From Deinococcales bacterium (lineage in GTDB: Bacteria > Deinococcota > Deinococci > Deinococcales > JAAFIG01), in the NCBI GenBank assembly GCA_031414595.1, contig JANNVX010000098.1, positions 64,001 to 128,000 of the forward strand: a DNA stretch of 64,000 nucleotides. The letters run 5' to 3'. Position 1 is the stretch's first letter, and each line of letters opens with the position of its first letter. This document shows positions 3,001-30,000 of the stretch, one piece after another. The position numbers were made by a program.

Positions 3001-6000
3001 TTCGTGAAAGATAGCACGAGCAATCAACCTTGGAGGAAACCATTGTGAACCAATACCTAAATGTCTTTATCATGTTCCTTGTCGCGGCAGGCATCGGTGT
3101 GCTTGCCCTGATTGTTGGGGCAGTCCTCGGACCTAAAAAACCTTCTCGAGCCAAAAACATGAGTTATGAAAGTGGTAATGATCCCATCGGTAGCGCTCGA
3201 GAACGCTTCCCAGTCCATTTTTACTTAGTAGCGATGCTCTTTATTATTTTTGACATCGAAACCGCATTCTTTTACCCCTTGGCAGTTGCCTACAATAAAC
3301 TCGGGCTATTTGCCTTTTATGAAGCCCTAGCCTTTGTTTTCTTGGTCGGTATTGGGTACTTTTATATCCTTAAAAAAGGCATTCTGGACTGGAAATAAAT
3401 CAGCTTTGAGTTATCAGCTTTGGGCTTTGAGGCAACAAAACTTAGGAGTAACAATGTCAACCCTAAAAGACTTATTTGAAAAAGATGTCCAAGAACTCGA
3501 GAACGAGGGAATAGTTTTTGCGACCCTCGAGAAACTGGTGGCTTGGGGACGCAGCAATTCTATGTGGCCCATGACCTTTGGGCTTGCTTGCTGCGCCATT
3601 GAAATGATGGCATCCACCGATGCCCGCAACGACCTTGCACGGTTTGGCTCGGAAGTATTTCGGGCTTCGCCGCGTCAGTCTGATGTTTTAATTGTGGCTG
3701 GGCGTTTAAGTAAAAAAATGGCACCCGTGATGCGCCGAGTGTATGACCAAATGCCCGACCCTAAATGGGTGATTTCAATGGGCGCATGTGCCTCGAGCGG
3801 CGGCATGTTCAACAATTACGCGATTGTCCAGAACGTAGATAGTGTTGTTCCCGTGGATATTTTTGTCCCCGGCTGTCCGCCCCGCCCCGAAGGACTGATT
3901 TACGCCGTGATGCAACTGCAAAAGAAAGTACGCGGCGAAGCCATGGATGATTTTGGTACGCCCCTACCAATGGTGGAAGCATGGACAAGATAAATAACCG
4001 TAGGGGCGAGGTTGTCTTGACCCTAAACATGCACCTAGCGGGCAGGGTCGCACGCCTCGCCCTCTTTGGAGGACACCCATGAGTTCATTAGTTACCGCCC
4101 TCGAGAAAGCTGGCTTGCGCGAATACCCAATTCTCGAGGGGAAAATCAAAACGGTTGTCGCAGCACTGGACACCTTCAAAGCCTTTTTATTTGAATGTAA
4201 AGCTGTCGGTTTTAGTCTCTGTGCCGATCTCATGGGCGTGGATTACCTCGAGTACACCGAATTTATGCCCGAGCGCTTTGCTGTTATTTATAACTTGTTA
4301 AATGCTAAAAATGGTGAACGGATTCTGGTTAAAGTTTATGTCCCAGATGCTATAAAAATCCCAACCGTGACCGATATTTGGCGCACTGCCGAGTACCATG
4401 AACGCGAAGTGTATGACTTACTGGGGATTGAATTCTCCGACCATCCAGATATGCGTAAAATCCTCACCCCAGAAGATTTAGACGGGCATCCGCTTCGTAA
4501 GGATTTCCCGCTTGGCGAAACGCCAACGCTTTTTCGTGAAGGGCGCTTCTTAGACCCTTCGGCTTTTCGGGCTGGCTTAAGTGGTAAGGATACTGGTTTA
4601 TCGGGTTGGCGCGGTGGGTCACGCATAGACTCGAGCCTGATTCCGAAGTTGCCAACCGCAATTCCAGTATCAAAGGAGAAATGAGTTATGGCAAAAGTCA
4701 AAGAAAAACCAGTCATGCCAAAGCTCGAGACTCGAGCCGAAGTGATTATTCCCCAAGAACGCTCAGAATTAACGGGTGGGTCTGGTTTGCTGCACACCGA
4801 AATCATGCGCCTCAACGTTGGACCGCAACATCCAAGCACCCACGGTGTACTGAGAGTGGTAGTGGACATGGAGGGCGAATACGTCAAGCGGGTCGAACCG
4901 CACATTGGCTATTTGCATACTGGCTTTGAAAAAACCATGGAGAACCGCACCTACGCCCAAAACTTTACTTTTGCACCACGTATGGATTACTTGCACGGCT
5001 TTGGGTATGAGTTAGCCTACGCGCTGCCAGTTGAGCAACTTGTGGGCGCAGAAGTCCCAGACCGCGCTCGAGAAATCCGTGTGCTGCTGGTTGAACTCAA
5101 CCGCATCTCGAGCCACTTGGTTTTTTTAGGCACGGGCTTACTAGATTTAGGCGCTTTAACCCCATTTTTTTATACATTTGTCGAACGCGAAGCGATTTTA
5201 GATATTTTTGAAGCGATTGGCGGACAGCGCTTGCACCAAGGCTACTTTCGGGTTGGCGGCGTTGCCAAAGATACCCCAGACGGCTTTGAGGGCATGGTCA
5301 AAAAATTCCTTGATACGTTTGATGCCAAAGTAGACGAATACGAAAAACTCTTCAAAACTAATCCGATTTTTCTCGAGCGTACTCAGAACACTGGTATCAT
5401 GTCCGAAGCTGTGGCGCTGGATTTAGGCATCACTGGACCAAATCTTCGGGCTTCGGGTGTGGCGCTTGACCACCGCAAAACCACGCCGTATTCGGGTTAC
5501 GAACAATACGACTTTGATGTTCCACTTGGTACACATGGCGATAGCTTTGACCGCTTTGTGGTGCGTGTCCAAGAAATGCGTGAATCGGCAAAAATTTGTC
5601 GCCAAGCACTCTCGAGATTAAAGCCCGGCGCAATCCAAGACCCAAATCGCAAAATCAGCTTGCCGCCCCGCGAAGAACTCGAGACCAGTATGGAAGCTGT
5701 GATTCACCACTTTAAGCTGGTGACAGAAGGTTATCATCCGCCTAAAGGCGAGGCGTATGTGCCAACTGAATCGGCTCGAGGTGAACTGGGGTGTTATATC
5801 GTTTCTGACGGCGGCAGTATGCCCTACCGCATTCATTTCCGCGCCCCAAGCTTTGTCAATTTGCAAGCCTTGCCCGTAATTGGCATTGGTGGATTATTCG
5901 CCGACCTGATTACTGTAATCGCCAGCCTTGACCCCGTGATGGGCGACGTAGACAGGTGAGAATATGAGTCAAACTGCCGAACAAGAATACATGGAACGAC

Positions 6001-27000: not shown

Positions 27001-30000
27001 CAATGGCGTTGTACACGGTTTTTGGCGGTTTATTGATGTTGGTCAGCATCATCAGTGCCAAGTTACTGACTGGTTCACCGACTTTTCTGCTCGAGGATTT
27101 GTTGCGTGGTTTGCGCTTGCCAATTGCTGATGTGACGCTTTTGTTTATCACTTTTAATCCTAAAACCATGATGTTTATTGGGTTTTTACTTGCCTTGGCG
27201 GTCAAAACCCCGCTTTTTCCGATGCACGCTTGGATGCCAGAATTTCACGCTCAAAATCATCCGAGTGGTGTAGCTGACCTGATGGGAACGCTCTATAAGG
27301 TTGGCGGCTATGCCTTGTTTCGTTTTGCCGTGCCAATGTTCCCCGATGTTGTGGCAAATGCCCAAGGTTGGCTGATGTTCTTAGCCGCCTTTACCGCCAT
27401 TTATGGCGCATGGGTGGCTTTTGCCCAAACCGATTTTAAGCGCTTACTGGCTTACGCAGGTATTTCCCACATGGGTTTGGTGGCATTGGGTGTCTTTAGC
27501 CTTCATCCTGCGGGTGCGGCTGGCGCAATGTTGCTGCTTGCCTTTCAGGGTATCTACTCGAGTGGCTTGTTCTTGGTGGTTGGGATGCTCGAGCGTCGCT
27601 TTATTGTGTTAGAAGGTGGCGATGAAAGCAAAGAAAAAGCCTTGGATCGCGCCCTCGAGATTGGGCGAGTGCGAGGACTTGCCGCAAGCGCTCCAGCCTT
27701 TGCGGGTGTGGCGCTGCTGCTCTGGTTTGCCAGTATTGGTGTTCCGGGTTTGGCAGGTTTTATTGGTGAGTACAGCATTTTACTTGGTGCATACCAAGCC
27801 AATCCGTGGATGGCGGCGATTGCGGTCACAACCGTGATTGCCAGTGCTGCCTTTGCTTTAACTGCCTACCAAAAAACATGGTACGAAGAAGCCACACACA
27901 GCGTAGCCGACCTCTCGAGACGTGAATGGACAGTGCTTATCCCAATCGTTGCCCTTGTGGTCTTGTTTGGTGTCTACAGCGCTCCAGCCCTCGAGTTGGT
28001 CAAACCCGTGGTGGCACAATTGTATGGAATTGCATTGGAGGCAAATAAATGACCCCCGTTTACGAATTCGTAGGGGCGAACCTTGTGTTCGCCCTGACCC
28101 TGCCTTGTGCGTACAGGGCGATGACAAGCGACCCAAGCCCGAAGGTGCTGTTTTTGCGGTCAAGAAGCATCGCCCCTACGGTTGGTTTGGTGTTGGTTGT
28201 GACCGAGGTGTGTTTATGACCCCGCCTGATGTCAATGTATTGTCGTTAATGCCTGTACTGATGGTCTTGTTCACGGCTGTTTTCGCCACGGTGTTGCCCT
28301 TTTACACCACCCGCCGTGGAATAGCTGGATTATCAGCCATGGGGCTGGTGGTGGCACTTGGTTGGACGGTTGCCTTGTGGAATCAGAACCTCTCGAGTTT
28401 TAGCGGTTCGTATGTAGCCGATAATTTTGCACTGGCTTTTAGCGTGATTCTGATTCTGGCAGGGATTGCAGCGATTGCCTCGAGTGCCGACGGAATTGTA
28501 CGTGGTGGTTCTATGCCCGCCGAGTTCTACGCGATTATGCTTTACGCCATTTGCGGCACAATGCTCTTGGTTCATGCTCGGGATTTAATTGTGATGCTGA
28601 TTGGTTTTGAAGTGATGAGCCTTGGTGTTTATATTTTGTCCAGTTTCCAAGACCGCAAGCAGTCCGAAGAGGCTGGTTTGAAGTATTTCCTCTTGGGTTC
28701 TTTTGCCAGTGCGATTTTGATTTTTGGGATTGCTTTGGTCTTTGGTGGCACGGGTTCATTTGCCCTCGAGACGATCAGAACAACCCTTGCTGGTAATCCA
28801 ACCAATACACCGATTGTGGCGGTTGGGGCGCTTTTTATTCTGATTGGTTTTGGGTTTAAGGTTGCCTTTGCGCCGTTTCATCAGTGGACTCCGGATGTGT
28901 ATTCTGGTGCGCCGATTGCCGTTACCCAGTACATGAGTGTCGGTGTCAAAGCCGCCGCATTTGCGGGAATGCTGAAAATCTTTGGTGAGGCACTGCCAAG
29001 CGTGGCGGGTTGGCAAACTCCAGCCCAGTTTTTAATTGCTTTAACCCTAATGATTGGTAATTTAGCCGCCCTTAAACAAACTAATTTTAAGCGAATGTTA
29101 GCGTATTCGAGTATTGCCCATGCGGGGTACATCGGTTTGGCGGTACTGTCCGCTCCTGCACAGGCTTTTCCAGCCGCACTTTTTTATATGGCAGCGTACG
29201 CCCTGATGAACGCTGGGGCTTTTGCGGTCTTAAACAGTATTTCACCGTCCGATGATGGGGTCAAAGTGGACAGTCTGGCTGGGCTTGGCTCGAGAAATCC
29301 GTTCTTGGCGGGGATGCTGGCACTATTTTTAATTGCCTTGGCTGGTATTCCGCCCTTGGCTGGTTTTATGGGCAAATACCTGATTTTTGCTGGGGCTGCC
29401 CAAGCTGGTTTTTATGGCTTAGTGATTCTGGCTGCCTTAACCAGTGCAGTCAGTTTGTATTATTATTTGCGTCCGGTTGCTTTAATGTGGTTTGTTGAAC
29501 CCAAAGGTTTTGCCCTACCAGACCTTTCAAGCGGTATGTCTCGAGCCGTGATGGTTGTCTGTGCGCTTGGTGTGGTGCTGCTTGGGGTTGTGCCGAGTCT
29601 GGTGACAAATTTAGTGGCTAACATCGGCATTGTTGCCTCGAGATAAATCTATTTTGTTTTAGACAGGGACTTCTTAAAGAAGTCCCTGTTTTTAATGTTG
29701 AGCGACTGCACCAATACTCGAGGTTCGCCAGTGTCCAGCTTGCCAACGCAGCCAGTACACAACCGACAACAGCGCCAAGTAAACAAATGGGGCGAACCAA
29801 ATTTCGATTAACCCACCGCCGTTGGTGACAATTAAATAACCACCACCGACCATGATTGTCCAAGCACACAAAAGGGTCACGAGGGCAGCAAATCGGGTGT
29901 CACCAGTGCCGAGTAAGGCACTGCGAAAGACAATGTTAGCCGCATCAAACAATTGATAAAATGCCATGAAGCGCAGTAGCGAAGCGGTCAGCAAAATCAC

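Follow-up and report, generated by a model that had tools for sequence, protein, structure and literature searches.

What makes the Complex I operon of this Deinococcales bacterium about twice its normal length, and how might the additional genes have come to lie inside it? Within the window (the whole 64,000-nucleotide stretch analysed here), the operon nuoA-N extends over positions 3030-29646 of the + strand and includes all 14 nuo genes, every one of which matches its own Pfam family far above the cut-off. It owes its length to about 24 restriction, toxin-antitoxin (TA) and candidate phage-defence genes that lie between its genes in four places.

Organisation of the interrupted operon

The nuo genes and a repeat element among them are arranged as follows (E-values for nuoA-D range from 1e-29 to 1e-113).

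3030-3398, + strand: nuoA (Pfam Oxidored_q4)
3334-3993, + strand: nuoB (Oxidored_q6)
3992-4075, + strand: 84-nt hairpin repeat element in B/C (direct repeat families D4/D5)
4079-4684, + strand: nuoC (Complex1_30kDa)
4688-5959, + strand: nuoD (Complex1_49kDa)
7480-8100, + strand: nuoE (2Fe-2S_thioredx)
8097-9455, + strand: nuoF (Complex1_51K)
16034-18406, + strand: nuoG (Pfam match)
19802-20926, + strand: nuoH (NADHdh, E 3e-113)
22770-29646, + strand: nuoI, J, K, L, M and N (Pfam matches)

ORFs of the same orientation interrupt this series at D/E (5964-7502), F/G (9456-16037), G/H (18407-19761) and H/I (20927-22731); at the remaining junctions, ORF coordinates put the distance between genes at -65 to +166 nt. 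The four junctions hold 25 + strand ORFs of at least 61 aa, or about 24 once the doubtful p15 is set aside. ORF coordinates and Pfam matches agree in supporting the claim of the genome-wide survey's note that some 24 passengers on the nuo strand split the operon at four junctions. The passengers have a GC content of 0.34-0.44, versus 0.43-0.55 for the nuo genes. Further copies of the hairpin element lie at J/K (24009-24092) and L/M (26460-26504), with at least 17 matches in the genome. The expanded operon is not an assembly artefact: contigs of four DNA runs, possibly from the source sample, span 4500-24000 and break only at internal repeats, and the expanded pattern is seen again in independent genomes, including one assembled as a single contig.

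The passenger genes

5964-6686, + strand: p1, Uma2 nuclease-like, 240 aa (Pfam Uma2 E 4e-12; PADLOC PDC-S03)
6677-7252, + strand: p2, Uma2, 191 aa (Pfam Uma2 E 2.5e-32; PDC-S03 E 3e-17)
7239-7502, + strand: p3, 87 aa, no family, overlapping the nuoE start
9478-9582, + strand: 34-aa ORF after the conserved leader downstream of nuoF, read off the sequence
9580-10545, + strand: p4, Type II restriction endonuclease (REase; PADLOC REase_II E 1e-86)
10542-11456, + strand: p5, N6/N4 methyltransferase (MTase; PADLOC MTase_II E 1e-93; Pfam N6_N4_Mtase)
11545-11772, + strand: p6, no family
11769-12047, + strand: p7, possible antitoxin, no family
12044-12496, + strand: p8, PIN/VapC (Pfam PIN E 1e-12; NCBIfam VapC subfamily below cut-off)
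12535-12729, + strand: p9, small protein (small-ORF family alignment)
12738-13142, + strand: p10, retropepsin-like (PADLOC PDC-M52B E 5e-22; DSGA motif)
13204-14199, + strand: p11, MTase (Pfam N6_N4_Mtase E 7e-41)
14196-14837, + strand: p12, 213 aa
14893-15105, + strand: p13, small protein
15102-15527, + strand: p14, retropepsin-like, likely GTG start at 15102 (PDC-M52B E 1e-27)
15421-15669, + strand: p15, doubtful ORF
15669-16037, + strand: p16, 122 aa, no family, stop overlapping the nuoG start
18407-19048, + strand: p17, lipoprotein-like, 213 aa (signal peptide, lipobox Cys16; alignment)
19123-19308, + strand: p18, HicB-like (UPF0150 below Pfam cut-off)
19305-19496, + strand: p19, HicA (Pfam HicA_toxin 36 bits, over cut-off)
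19540-19761, + strand: p20, weakly Phd-like (PhdYeFM below Pfam cut-off)
20952-21164, + strand: p21, small protein
21161-21577, + strand: p22, retropepsin-like, likely extent (PDC-M52B E 2e-18)
21632-21853, + strand: p23, small protein
21850-22272, + strand: p24, retropepsin-like (PDC-M52B E 1e-26)
22297-22731, + strand: p25, HTH_Tnp_1 DNA-binding protein, 144 aa (Pfam E 3.5e-8)

Family matches thus comprise two Uma2 proteins, a Type II REase with an N6_N4 MTase, a second MTase, PIN, HicA, HTH_Tnp_1 and four retropepsin-like proteins, with weak matches to UPF0150/HicB-like and Phd families. The survey's description of the passengers as TA, restriction and Uma2 genes fits about 15 of the roughly 24, which are TA, restriction-modification (RM), Uma2 or defence-candidate genes; it does not fit p3, p6, p7, p12, p16, p17 or the small partner ORFs.

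Judged by sequence, p4 and p5 (RM pair 1) are the one certain Type II RM pair of the cargo. The stop codon of the preceding 34-aa ORF overlaps the REase start (ATGA), and the leader downstream of nuoF is kept in relatives. A possible REase partner of p11 is p12, for which searches of Pfam, PADLOC and the PDB returned no family match and no structural relative. Genes p7 and p8 also adjoin each other in one relative (G014), p16 has a homologue with 35% identity in the same place in another (G003), and the p25 orthologue at H/I of a third (G006) is 72% identical; p25 lacks a transposase catalytic partner. The structure model of p17 (pLDDT 70) has generic Ig-like matches only. The four pairs of a small and a retropepsin-like protein (p9/p10, p13/p14, p21/p22, p23/p24) correspond to the PADLOC candidate PDC-M52. 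The start of p14 is inferred from alignment and the GTGA overlap; the H/I pairs show ATGA and GTGA overlaps, and both their families were aligned.

Junctions, cargo and boundary repeats in the family

The survey's note also held that relatives are expanded at the same four junctions, which was confirmed on re-measurement from tblastn ends and ORF tiling rather than gene calls. By this measure D/E spans 588-1952 bp in 10 of 11 family genomes (-8 in G010), F/G 1075-6582 bp in all eight, G/H 598-1727 bp in nine of 11 (64-65 bp in G011 and G017) and H/I 339-1847 bp in all 11, across five genera; every other nuo junction in these genomes is at most 270 bp. The accompanying statement that other Deinococcales families have compact operons needs qualification: among 12 genomes of four families, eight have at most 381 bp at all four junctions, the exceptions being G019 (D/E 557, H/I 804), G020 (D/E 487, H/I 316), G024 (D/E 425, F/G 548) and G028 (D/E 293). 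All three genomes of one of these families (f3) carry something at D/E.

Cargo was said to differ between genomes. This is only partly so: recurring gene families occupy the same junctions, and some passengers are old residents, others recently exchanged. Uma2 is the first gene after nuoD in nine of 11 family genomes and the first after nuoF in three; the D/E cargo of G006 and the G/H and H/I arrays contain none. Uma2 p1 differs from its G003 counterpart by a dS of 0.157, far below that of nuoD (0.77), and was thus exchanged recently; the tract of 92-98% identity begins about 160 nt inside nuoD and ends at the p1 stop codon. RM pair 1, by contrast an old resident, has orthologues in G003 with dS of 0.81-0.97 (0.74-0.87 for nuo genes) and dN/dS of 0.07-0.08, and has been co-inherited with nuo since the two genomes split. 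The density per kb of the host signature CTCGAG is 5.6 in the cargo versus 6.1 in the host.

Several cassettes are bounded by short repeats.

12477-12535, + strand: F/G boundary repeat, copy 1 (repeat families D2, D7, D9); further copies at 13135-13187, 14835-14899 and 15508-15572
20901-20968, + strand: H/I boundary repeat (D1), the nuoH 3' end plus leader, TGATAGAAT..GGAGGTG; further copies at 21581-21648 and 22247-22314, after each of the two cassettes

The four F/G copies (40-60 nt) share 86-98% pairwise identity and are confined, genome-wide, to this junction. The H/I copies are 87% and 62% identical as D1 repeats, or 92% and 97% over 59 and 30 nt, and the leader after nuoH is conserved across genera. 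At G/H, the last 42-44 nt of nuoG (18362-18405) recur after p17 at 19077-19119 (D12, 90%; 91% over 44 nt). Each boundary repeat locally duplicates the 3' end of the gene upstream of it; none has further copies elsewhere in the genome, and the repeats differ between junctions and genera. Relatives bear comparable marks: G011 duplicates 60 nt of its own nuoH end, G007 duplicates 35 nt of a Uma2 end at 100% identity, and G007 and G003 hold nuoH-end copies in H/I. In G013, a scar between HicBA and the lipoprotein gene joins roughly 50 nt from the 5' start of nuoH to roughly 45 nt from the 3' end of nuoG, in this order. When translated, the extra nuoH-end copies give plausible variants of the NuoH C-terminus (ARAKAGS versus ARANAGD), and the flanking retropepsin genes are just 32% identical. 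The repeats and the G013 scar suggest that junction alleles were stacked by recombination; this model is built on a handful of scars, for which tandem duplication followed by gene conversion would be an alternative.

Origin and expression of the cassettes

The habit is not specific to Complex I and extends to the ribosomal spc/alpha cluster, suf, ccm and other operons. The present genome, with 24 Uma2 matches, carries Uma2, Phd and YoeB between infA and rpsM; Uma2 also follows gatB, rpsA, pnp and hisB immediately on their 3' side and precedes ccmF, and retropepsin pairs are found in sufB/sufD of three relatives. It would therefore be a trait of the cassettes and the lineage, not of Complex I.

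We consider it probable that the passengers are selfish or defence-type cassettes embedded in housekeeping operons, swapped by recombination and stacked into arrays at the junctions. The four nuo junctions free of translational coupling would have harboured co-oriented cassettes (RM pairs, TA pairs, solo Uma2 nucleases, PDC-M52 retropepsin pairs) since before the split of the family's five genera. Cassettes would enter and be swapped by recombination with conserved nuo genes as homology arms. An array would lengthen whenever unequal or illegitimate recombination stacks two differing alleles of a junction, and every such event would leave between the cassettes a duplicate of the upstream gene's 3' end and at times also of the downstream gene's 5' start. 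The 3'-end copies may persist because they contain the RBS, and perhaps the -10 box, of the next cassette, so that expression would come from nuo read-through or from short leaders. Loss of the cassettes would be difficult, since they are addictive (RM, TA) and deletions would endanger essential neighbours; Complex I itself would be unchanged. As a counterpoint, the lipoprotein family and several ORFs have no known selfish-gene identity.

Some passengers might instead be lineage-specific Complex I accessories, placed in the operon for co-regulation, with the G/H lipoprotein helping to assemble or stabilise the complex and the retropepsin-like proteases serving processing or quality control. 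The lipoprotein family (about 200 aa) indeed recurs at G/H in seven family genomes of three genera, the small-protein and retropepsin pair lies directly after nuoH behind the conserved leader in 10, and 16 verified and two likely of the family's 22 retropepsin copies (all four in the present genome) are in nuo, which could reflect a functional tie rather than inheritance and local duplication. Yet the other four copies sit in suf and pre operons, the pair has no match in seven of 19 family genomes, and G011 and G017 have no G/H cargo at all. Members of the two families are only 20-57% identical whereas nuo genes are 70-96% identical, and Complex I of other families lacks both genes. The retropepsin-like family is moreover large (2459 representative clusters at E ≤0.001), made up of stand-alone proteins of about 135 aa, commonest in Cyanobacteriota and matched by the defence candidate PDC-M52B, and we regard an accessory role as quite unlikely.

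It is also unlikely, in our estimation, that Uma2 acts as a free-standing homing-endonuclease-like enzyme that cuts empty junction alleles on other chromosome copies or incoming DNA, repair then copying in Uma2 with its neighbours and seeding arrays. Its recurrent place after nuoD and nuoF, its position directly 3' of housekeeping genes at many loci of this genome and the recent p1 transfer, with a tract reaching into nuoD as in co-conversion, would fit such behaviour; plain homologous recombination anchored once, in nuoD, accounts for the tract just as well. Among 14 control genomes, Uma2 occurs only in Synechococcus, Thermus and Deinococcus, which are polyploid and naturally transformable. 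Uma2 is a predicted PD-(D/E)XK endonuclease and likely a solo toxin forming paralogue cassettes (PMC2701414). Any nuclease specificity or shared target sequence would be hypothetical, and the arrays that lack Uma2 speak against such behaviour.

Least probable by far, and already disfavoured, is an integron-like origin, in which the boundary repeats would be attachment sites where a site-specific recombinase inserts cassettes without promoters. As in integrons, the cassettes are tandem, co-oriented, small, apparently largely promoterless and often TA, with short repeats between them; most are two-gene units, and the repeats measure 40-68 nt. However, domain searches of the cargo, flanks and relatives' junctions detected no integrase, transposase catalytic or other recombinase domain, and there is no shared attC-type site: the repeats copy the neighbouring host gene's end, differ by junction and genus, and match nowhere else in the genome.

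A further alternative, to which we give a minor share of the probability, is that the operon is no longer a single transcription unit and each nuo block and each cassette has its own promoter, so that the passengers are not hitchhiking. It concerns expression only and is compatible with the embedding of cassettes. The motif TGAnTAGAAT, which resembles an extended -10 box, stands 6-8 nt upstream of GGAGGTG after nuoH, where it is conserved in five of five genomes, and is repeated before each H/I cassette; its hexamer TAGAAT is invariant after the nuoH stop in all five genomes compared and could be an internal promoter, in which case the cassettes need no nuo transcription. On the other side, gaps are short, many stop and start codons overlap or lie a few bases apart, and nuoG, nuoE and several cassettes start within the 3' end of the preceding ORF. 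Two transcription-like signals flank the operon.

2968-2996, + strand: promoter-like site TTGTTA-17-TATAAT upstream of nuoA (consensus scan only, 10/12 matches)
29661-29691, + strand: terminator-like hairpin after nuoN, 14 pairs and a T run, the strongest within 2000-31000

The terminator scan found no strong site in the junctions, the sole strong one following nuoN; since both scans yielded no more sites than in shuffled sequence, these results weigh little either way.

Additional co-oriented ORFs among Complex I genes have precedents in Paracoccus denitrificans and Rhodobacter capsulatus, whose nqo/nuo clusters, described in the 1990s, have unidentified reading frames interspersed around E, F, G, H and I; these are few and are not known to include RM, TA or defence genes. 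The embedding favoured here has a closer parallel in Payne et al. 2024 (10.1101/2024.01.29.577857), whose passages on embedding describe defence systems nested within operons of larger, multi-gene ones (Hma, BREX, DISARM, Type I RM), sharing the host operon's orientation in 96.7%, and PADLOC candidates (PDCs) derived from it, without naming PDC-S03 or PDC-M52. Common to both are diverse, rapidly exchanged cassettes nested in a conserved multi-gene system in its orientation (here all ~24) and phage-defence candidates, here PDC-S03/Uma2 and PDC-M52. Unlike in those passages, the operons invaded here have housekeeping functions (Complex I, ribosomal proteins, SUF, ccm), the junctions are fixed family-wide and the boundaries bear duplicated host-gene ends. 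As in the defence islands and integration hotspots flanked by core genes reported by Oliveira et al. 2017 (PMC5635113) and Hochhauser et al. 2023 (PMC10121019), accessory and defence genes cluster at a few chromosomal sites bordered by conserved genes and turn over among relatives, a likely vehicle being homologous recombination in the flanks; those hotspots, as described, sit between transcription units, whereas the four found here lie inside one 14-gene operon and carry no mobile-element genes. Finally, solo tandem Uma2 genes without antitoxins recall the cyanobacterial Uma2 (COG4636) paralogue cassettes of Makarova et al. 2009 (PMC2701414); in contrast to what is described there, Uma2 is here systematically placed immediately behind housekeeping genes, on their 3' side, and within operons.

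Passenger genes of the Complex I operon

In the window (G000:C98:64001-128000), part of a 4.49-Mb genome (G000; 120 contigs, 47.2% GC), all 14 subunit genes of nuoA-N are intact and follow the canonical order on the + strand (3030-29646), each with a Pfam match. The encoded proteins align over their full length with those of relatives (tblastn), and comparison with the family member G003 yields dN/dS values of 0.04-0.08 for nuoD, F, G, H, and I. The genome-wide survey's note counted 24 passenger genes on the nuo strand at four junctions, nuoD-nuoE (D-E), F-G, G-H, and H-I; we find 25 + strand ORFs of at least 61 aa there, one of which (p15) is doubtful, and the figure of about 24 stands. 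GC content is 0.34-0.44 for the passengers versus 0.43-0.55 for the nuo genes.

Cargo of the four nuo junctions in G000 (p1-p25, in order)
D-E, + strand: two Uma2 genes (p1, p2) and an 87-aa ORF
F-G (6.6 kb), + strand, part 1: 34-aa leader ORF, Type II restriction endonuclease (REase) and methylase (p4/p5), p6, p7, PIN toxin (p8)
F-G, + strand, part 2: small protein and retropepsin-like protein (p9/p10), second methylase (p11) with a putative 213-aa partner (p12), second such small-retropepsin pair (p13/p14), p16
G-H, + strand: lipoprotein-like gene (p17), HicB-like/HicA pair (p18/p19), weak Phd-like ORF (p20)
H-I, + strand: two small-retropepsin pairs (p21/p22, p23/p24), HTH_Tnp_1 protein (p25)

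The other nuo genes overlap or are separated by at most 166 nt. A GC-rich 84-nt hairpin repeat, with at least 17 matches genome-wide, fills B-C (3992-4075), J-K (24009-24092), and L-M (26460-26504), and nuoN is directly followed by the strongest terminator-like hairpin within 2000-31000. Scans for terminators and promoters carry little weight, because the sites found are no more numerous than in shuffled sequence. The enlarged operon is not an assembly artefact. In four DNA runs, possibly made from the source sample, 4500-24000 is covered by contigs that break only at internal repeats and whose long pieces show no differences, and the same architecture is present in independent genomes, one of which is a single contig.

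Among the passengers, p4 and p5 match the PADLOC models REase_II (E 1e-86) and MTase_II (E 1e-93), overlap by 4 nt and, as adjacent REase and methyltransferase genes, are predicted to form a Type II restriction-modification (RM) system. The 34-aa ORF (9478-9582) lies behind a conserved leader downstream of nuoF and its stop overlaps the REase start; a similar ORF starts at the same place in G003, and its product may serve the RM pair as a leader or control peptide. Pfam assigns p11 to the N6_N4 methyltransferases, whereas p12 has no match in Pfam, NCBIfam, PADLOC, or PDB; sequence searches of PDB with p4 and p12 gave nothing useful. Toxin matches exceed the Pfam cut-off for HicA (36.2 bits, cut-off 27) and PIN (48.8 bits, cut-off 23.6); the latter scores 52 against an NCBIfam VapC subfamily, below its cut-off of 73.6. 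Of the upstream neighbors in these candidate HicAB and VapBC type II toxin-antitoxin pairs, the ORF preceding hicA reaches only 18.9 bits for UPF0150 (cut-off 27.3), and p7, which overlaps the PIN gene by 4 nt, has no family match. By the Pfam cut-off of 27 bits, p1 (46.3) and p2 (112.1) are Uma2 proteins, corresponding to the PADLOC candidate system PDC-S03. For p17, a fold search with the predicted structure returned generic Ig-like sandwich matches only (TM 0.2-0.5).

The four retropepsin-like paralogs are mutually 29-39% identical and, in G000, confined to the nuo operon. Their Pfam scores are mostly below the cut-off, which only p22 reaches (29.1 versus 24.3). The D-S/T-G-A motif, as DSGA or DTGA, is kept in eight of nine aligned members, the F-G copy of G003 having ATGA, and this motif within a domain of ~100 aa points to a retropepsin-like aspartic protease of clan AA. 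All four match PADLOC PDC-M52B (E 2e-18 to 1e-27), component B of the candidate PDC-M52 system, the 145 PDC systems being described by their authors as candidate phage-defence systems (Payne et al. 2024, bioRxiv 10.1101/2024.01.29.577857). Each paralog is preceded by a small ORF; these ORFs constitute one family starting with MSV, match no PADLOC model, and in three of the four pairs overlap the downstream gene by 4 nt (stop/start). A homologous-protein search retrieved, apart from the query, only a single relative at 85%. When 1.84 billion representatives were searched with a profile, 2459 proteins had E values of at most 0.001, and nearly all of the best 150 are ~135 aa long. Atlas neighbors of the family are mostly cyanobacterial.

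Junction size and recurring cargo in relatives

The nuo loci were compared across 10 further family genomes (5 genera) and 12 genomes from four other families, with later family contigs added.

Junction sizes in the family (here and outside the family, sizes derive from where tblastn alignments end and from a simple tiling of ORFs rather than from gene calls)
D-E: expanded in 10 of 11 genomes, 588-1952 bp; exception G010 (-8)
F-G: expanded in 8 of 8, 1075-6582 bp; no exception
G-H: expanded in 9 of 11, 598-1727 bp; exceptions G011 and G017 (64-65 bp)
H-I: expanded in 11 of 11, 339-1847 bp; no exception

The survey's note had reported expansion of the same four junctions in relatives, and these counts bear it out. 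Its companion claim, that other families have compact operons, describes 8 of the 12 non-family genomes at all four junctions; in the other four (G019, G020, G024, and G028), one or two of the junctions measure 293-804 bp, and DinB, MOSC, and a weak M50 match are among the ORFs there. That cargo differs between genomes, as the note also held, requires qualification, since the same families recur at the same junctions. The relatives' junctions are likewise tiled by + strand ORFs, and the first gene after nuoD is Uma2 in 9 of 11 genomes (clustering and Pfam). Seven genomes (G000, G003, G006, G013, G014, G015, and G018) share a lipobox family of ~200 aa at G-H, and five have a family of 130-186 aa without assigned function at D-E. 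In ten genomes, nuoH is directly followed by a small-retropepsin pair, behind a leader, TGAnTAGAAT...GGAGGTG...ATGAG, conserved across genera in all five genomes compared. Transcript starts at the TGATAGAAT leaders would favor independent units; transcripts that span the junctions and start only upstream of nuoA would favor hitchhiking. Retropepsin matches within the family number 22, in 12 of 19 genomes: 16 at F-G or H-I, three between sufB and sufD, one between preA and a dihydropyrimidinase-like gene, and two in G005, 6.6-7.2 kb downstream of nuoD, for which assignment to a junction is putative.

The cargo is of mixed age. Between G000 and G003, the RM pair p4/p5 has a dS of 0.81-0.97, close to that of nuoD/F/G/H/I (0.74-0.87), and a dN/dS of 0.07-0.08, and is therefore an old and probably functional resident. 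For Uma2 p1, dS is 0.157. Nucleotide identity between the two genomes, 78-92% (mostly 80-88%), rises to 92-98% from ~160 nt before the nuoD stop through p1, and precisely where p1 stops it falls to the random level (5800-6690 compared); p1 and the nuoD end are thus a tract that recombined recently, with its anchor in nuoD. Three of the four DNA runs contain a contig joining 5957 to 6646, skipping p1, with a shorter side of 38 letters at 90% likeness; it may stem from a related strain and hints weakly at presence/absence polymorphism. Because the density of CTCGAG in the cargo (5.6 per kb) matches that in the nuo genes (6.1 per kb), the cargo seems to come from the family's own gene pool rather than to be a recent arrival from outside.

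The hexamer itself looks like a highly iterated palindrome. It occurs 23,235 times in G000 versus ~972 expected from base composition (24-fold), the counts for GAGCTC, GGATCC, and GTCGAC being 6, 24, and 26, respectively, and that for GATC 2432 versus 17,426 expected. Over-representation at the nuo loci is 11-31-fold in all 11 family loci and 1.6-7-fold in the other families f2, f4, and f5, and CTCGAG is nearly absent in f3. Our literature searches found no paper on CTCGAG as a highly iterated palindrome. Cyanobacterial HIP1 would be a comparable element.

Boundary repeats and array growth

Hairpin element and paralogous coding sequence aside, the longest direct repeats in 2500-30000 mark the borders of cassettes. 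Behind p17 stands a second copy of the final 42-44 nt of nuoG (90-91% identity), each H-I cassette is followed by a copy of the nuoH end and its leader (92% and 97%), and F-G contains four copies of a 40-60-nt element (86-98%); none of these repeats has a copy elsewhere in the G000 genome. A 25-nt stretch resembling the nuoH end (9626-9650) lies in frame inside p4 and was not counted as a boundary. Among relatives, G011 repeats 60 nt of its own nuoH end, a 35-nt stretch from the end of a Uma2 gene is duplicated in G007 with 100% identity, and H-I of both G007 and G003 contains nuoH-end copies. Because the Shine-Dalgarno sequence of the next gene lies within them, the survival of these 3' ends would be explained.

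How arrays grow may be read from these borders. Simple duplication followed by drift is unlikely, because the extra nuoH ends in G000 encode a plausible variant of the NuoH tail (ARAKAGS) while the cassettes that they flank are only ~32% identical. Stacking of diverged junction alleles appears to be the better reading. In G013, ~50 nt from the beginning of nuoH and then ~45 nt from the end of nuoG form a scar between hicBA and the lipoprotein gene, as would be expected from joining two junction alleles, nuoG-HicBA-nuoH' and 'nuoG-lipoprotein-nuoH. The order of the same two cargo types in G000 is the reverse of that in G013, which suggests independent events. Integron arrays are a related idea, but the nuo cassettes lack a shared site, each boundary repeat being copied locally from the end of a host gene. 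An integron would have an IntI-type tyrosine recombinase and attC sites; a search of cargo and flanks found no recombinase domain.

A more active route is conceivable, in which Uma2 proteins are free-standing homing-type endonucleases and embedding in essential operons is targeted; we regard this as improbable. Uma2 of polyploid, transformable bacteria would open specific junctions just 3' of conserved genes, and repair from a cargo-bearing copy would install Uma2 together with whatever lies beside it. Operons for Complex I, ribosomal proteins, and Fe-S assembly would thereby acquire cassette arrays that are passed on to descendants, and the system would parallel the integron without using a recombinase.

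Embedding in housekeeping operons

The closest described phenomenon is the embedding of defence genes in defence operons, and integration hotspots between core genes, as outlined in PMC5635113 and PMC10121019, are a related idea. As guilt by embedding demands, the cassettes lie among the genes of a multi-gene system and point the same way as these, an orientation that, by the figure of Payne et al. (2024, bioRxiv 10.1101/2024.01.29.577857), embedded genes share with their host in 96.7%. The hosts here, however, are nuo, ribosomal, suf, and ccm operons and not defence systems themselves. Our literature searches found no description of the cassette-in-nuo arrangement. Alphaproteobacterial nqo clusters contain interspersed URFs. 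The usual view is that defence and addiction genes collect on mobile elements or in islands located between operons, whereas here they sit inside the most conserved operons, at junctions open across a whole bacterial family, and the Complex I operon is doubled in length yet remains intact. If general, embedding would be a property of the cassettes and not of defence hosts, and guilt by embedding would predict a defence function less reliably. Essential operons would then be long-term safe harbors and exchange points for accessory genes, with duplicated gene ends as a readable record of array growth without a recombinase, and the candidate PDC-M52 retropepsin pair and Uma2 would gain a clear natural context for experimental work.

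Other operons of the genome and family contain such cassettes as well. G000 has 24 Uma2, 29 PIN, and 9 ParE matches, and in at least 7 of 10 annotated Uma2 loci the gene lies co-oriented beside a housekeeping gene: directly 3' of gatB, rpsA, pnp, hisB, and a phosphorylase, or, with Phd-YoeB, ahead of ccmF. The copy at rpsA (ribosomal protein S1) is followed on the same strand by the sigma-70 gene rpoD (G000:C98:8783-13367, contig coordinates). The ribosomal spc/alpha cluster has Uma2, Phd/YefM, and YoeB genes, co-oriented and of low GC, inserted between infA and rpsM (G000:C93:39350-40350). This gap measures 1254 bp only in G000 and G001 and 649 bp in G007; nine further members of the family have 250-336 bp there, and genomes of other families 129-250 bp. 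The insertion is a young event. Three relatives (G009:C87, G014:C338, and G016:C207) have arrays between sufB and sufD that include a small-retropepsin pair, ParE, PIN, and DUF5674; in G000, the two genes are on separate contigs (C49 and C59), and sufD is preceded by low-GC ORFs and a ParE match. The nuo junctions are therefore the oldest and fullest example of a habit found across the lineage. A second Complex I-like operon of G000 (G000:C109:31972-43920), with 11 subunits (A, B, C, D, and H-N; no E, F, or G), is fully compact, its genes overlapping or abutting. At G000:C88:115585-117674, Uma2 is followed by three tandem, co-oriented pairs of antitoxin-like and YafQ-toxin genes, the array being flanked by a 475-aa gene and a VWA-domain gene.
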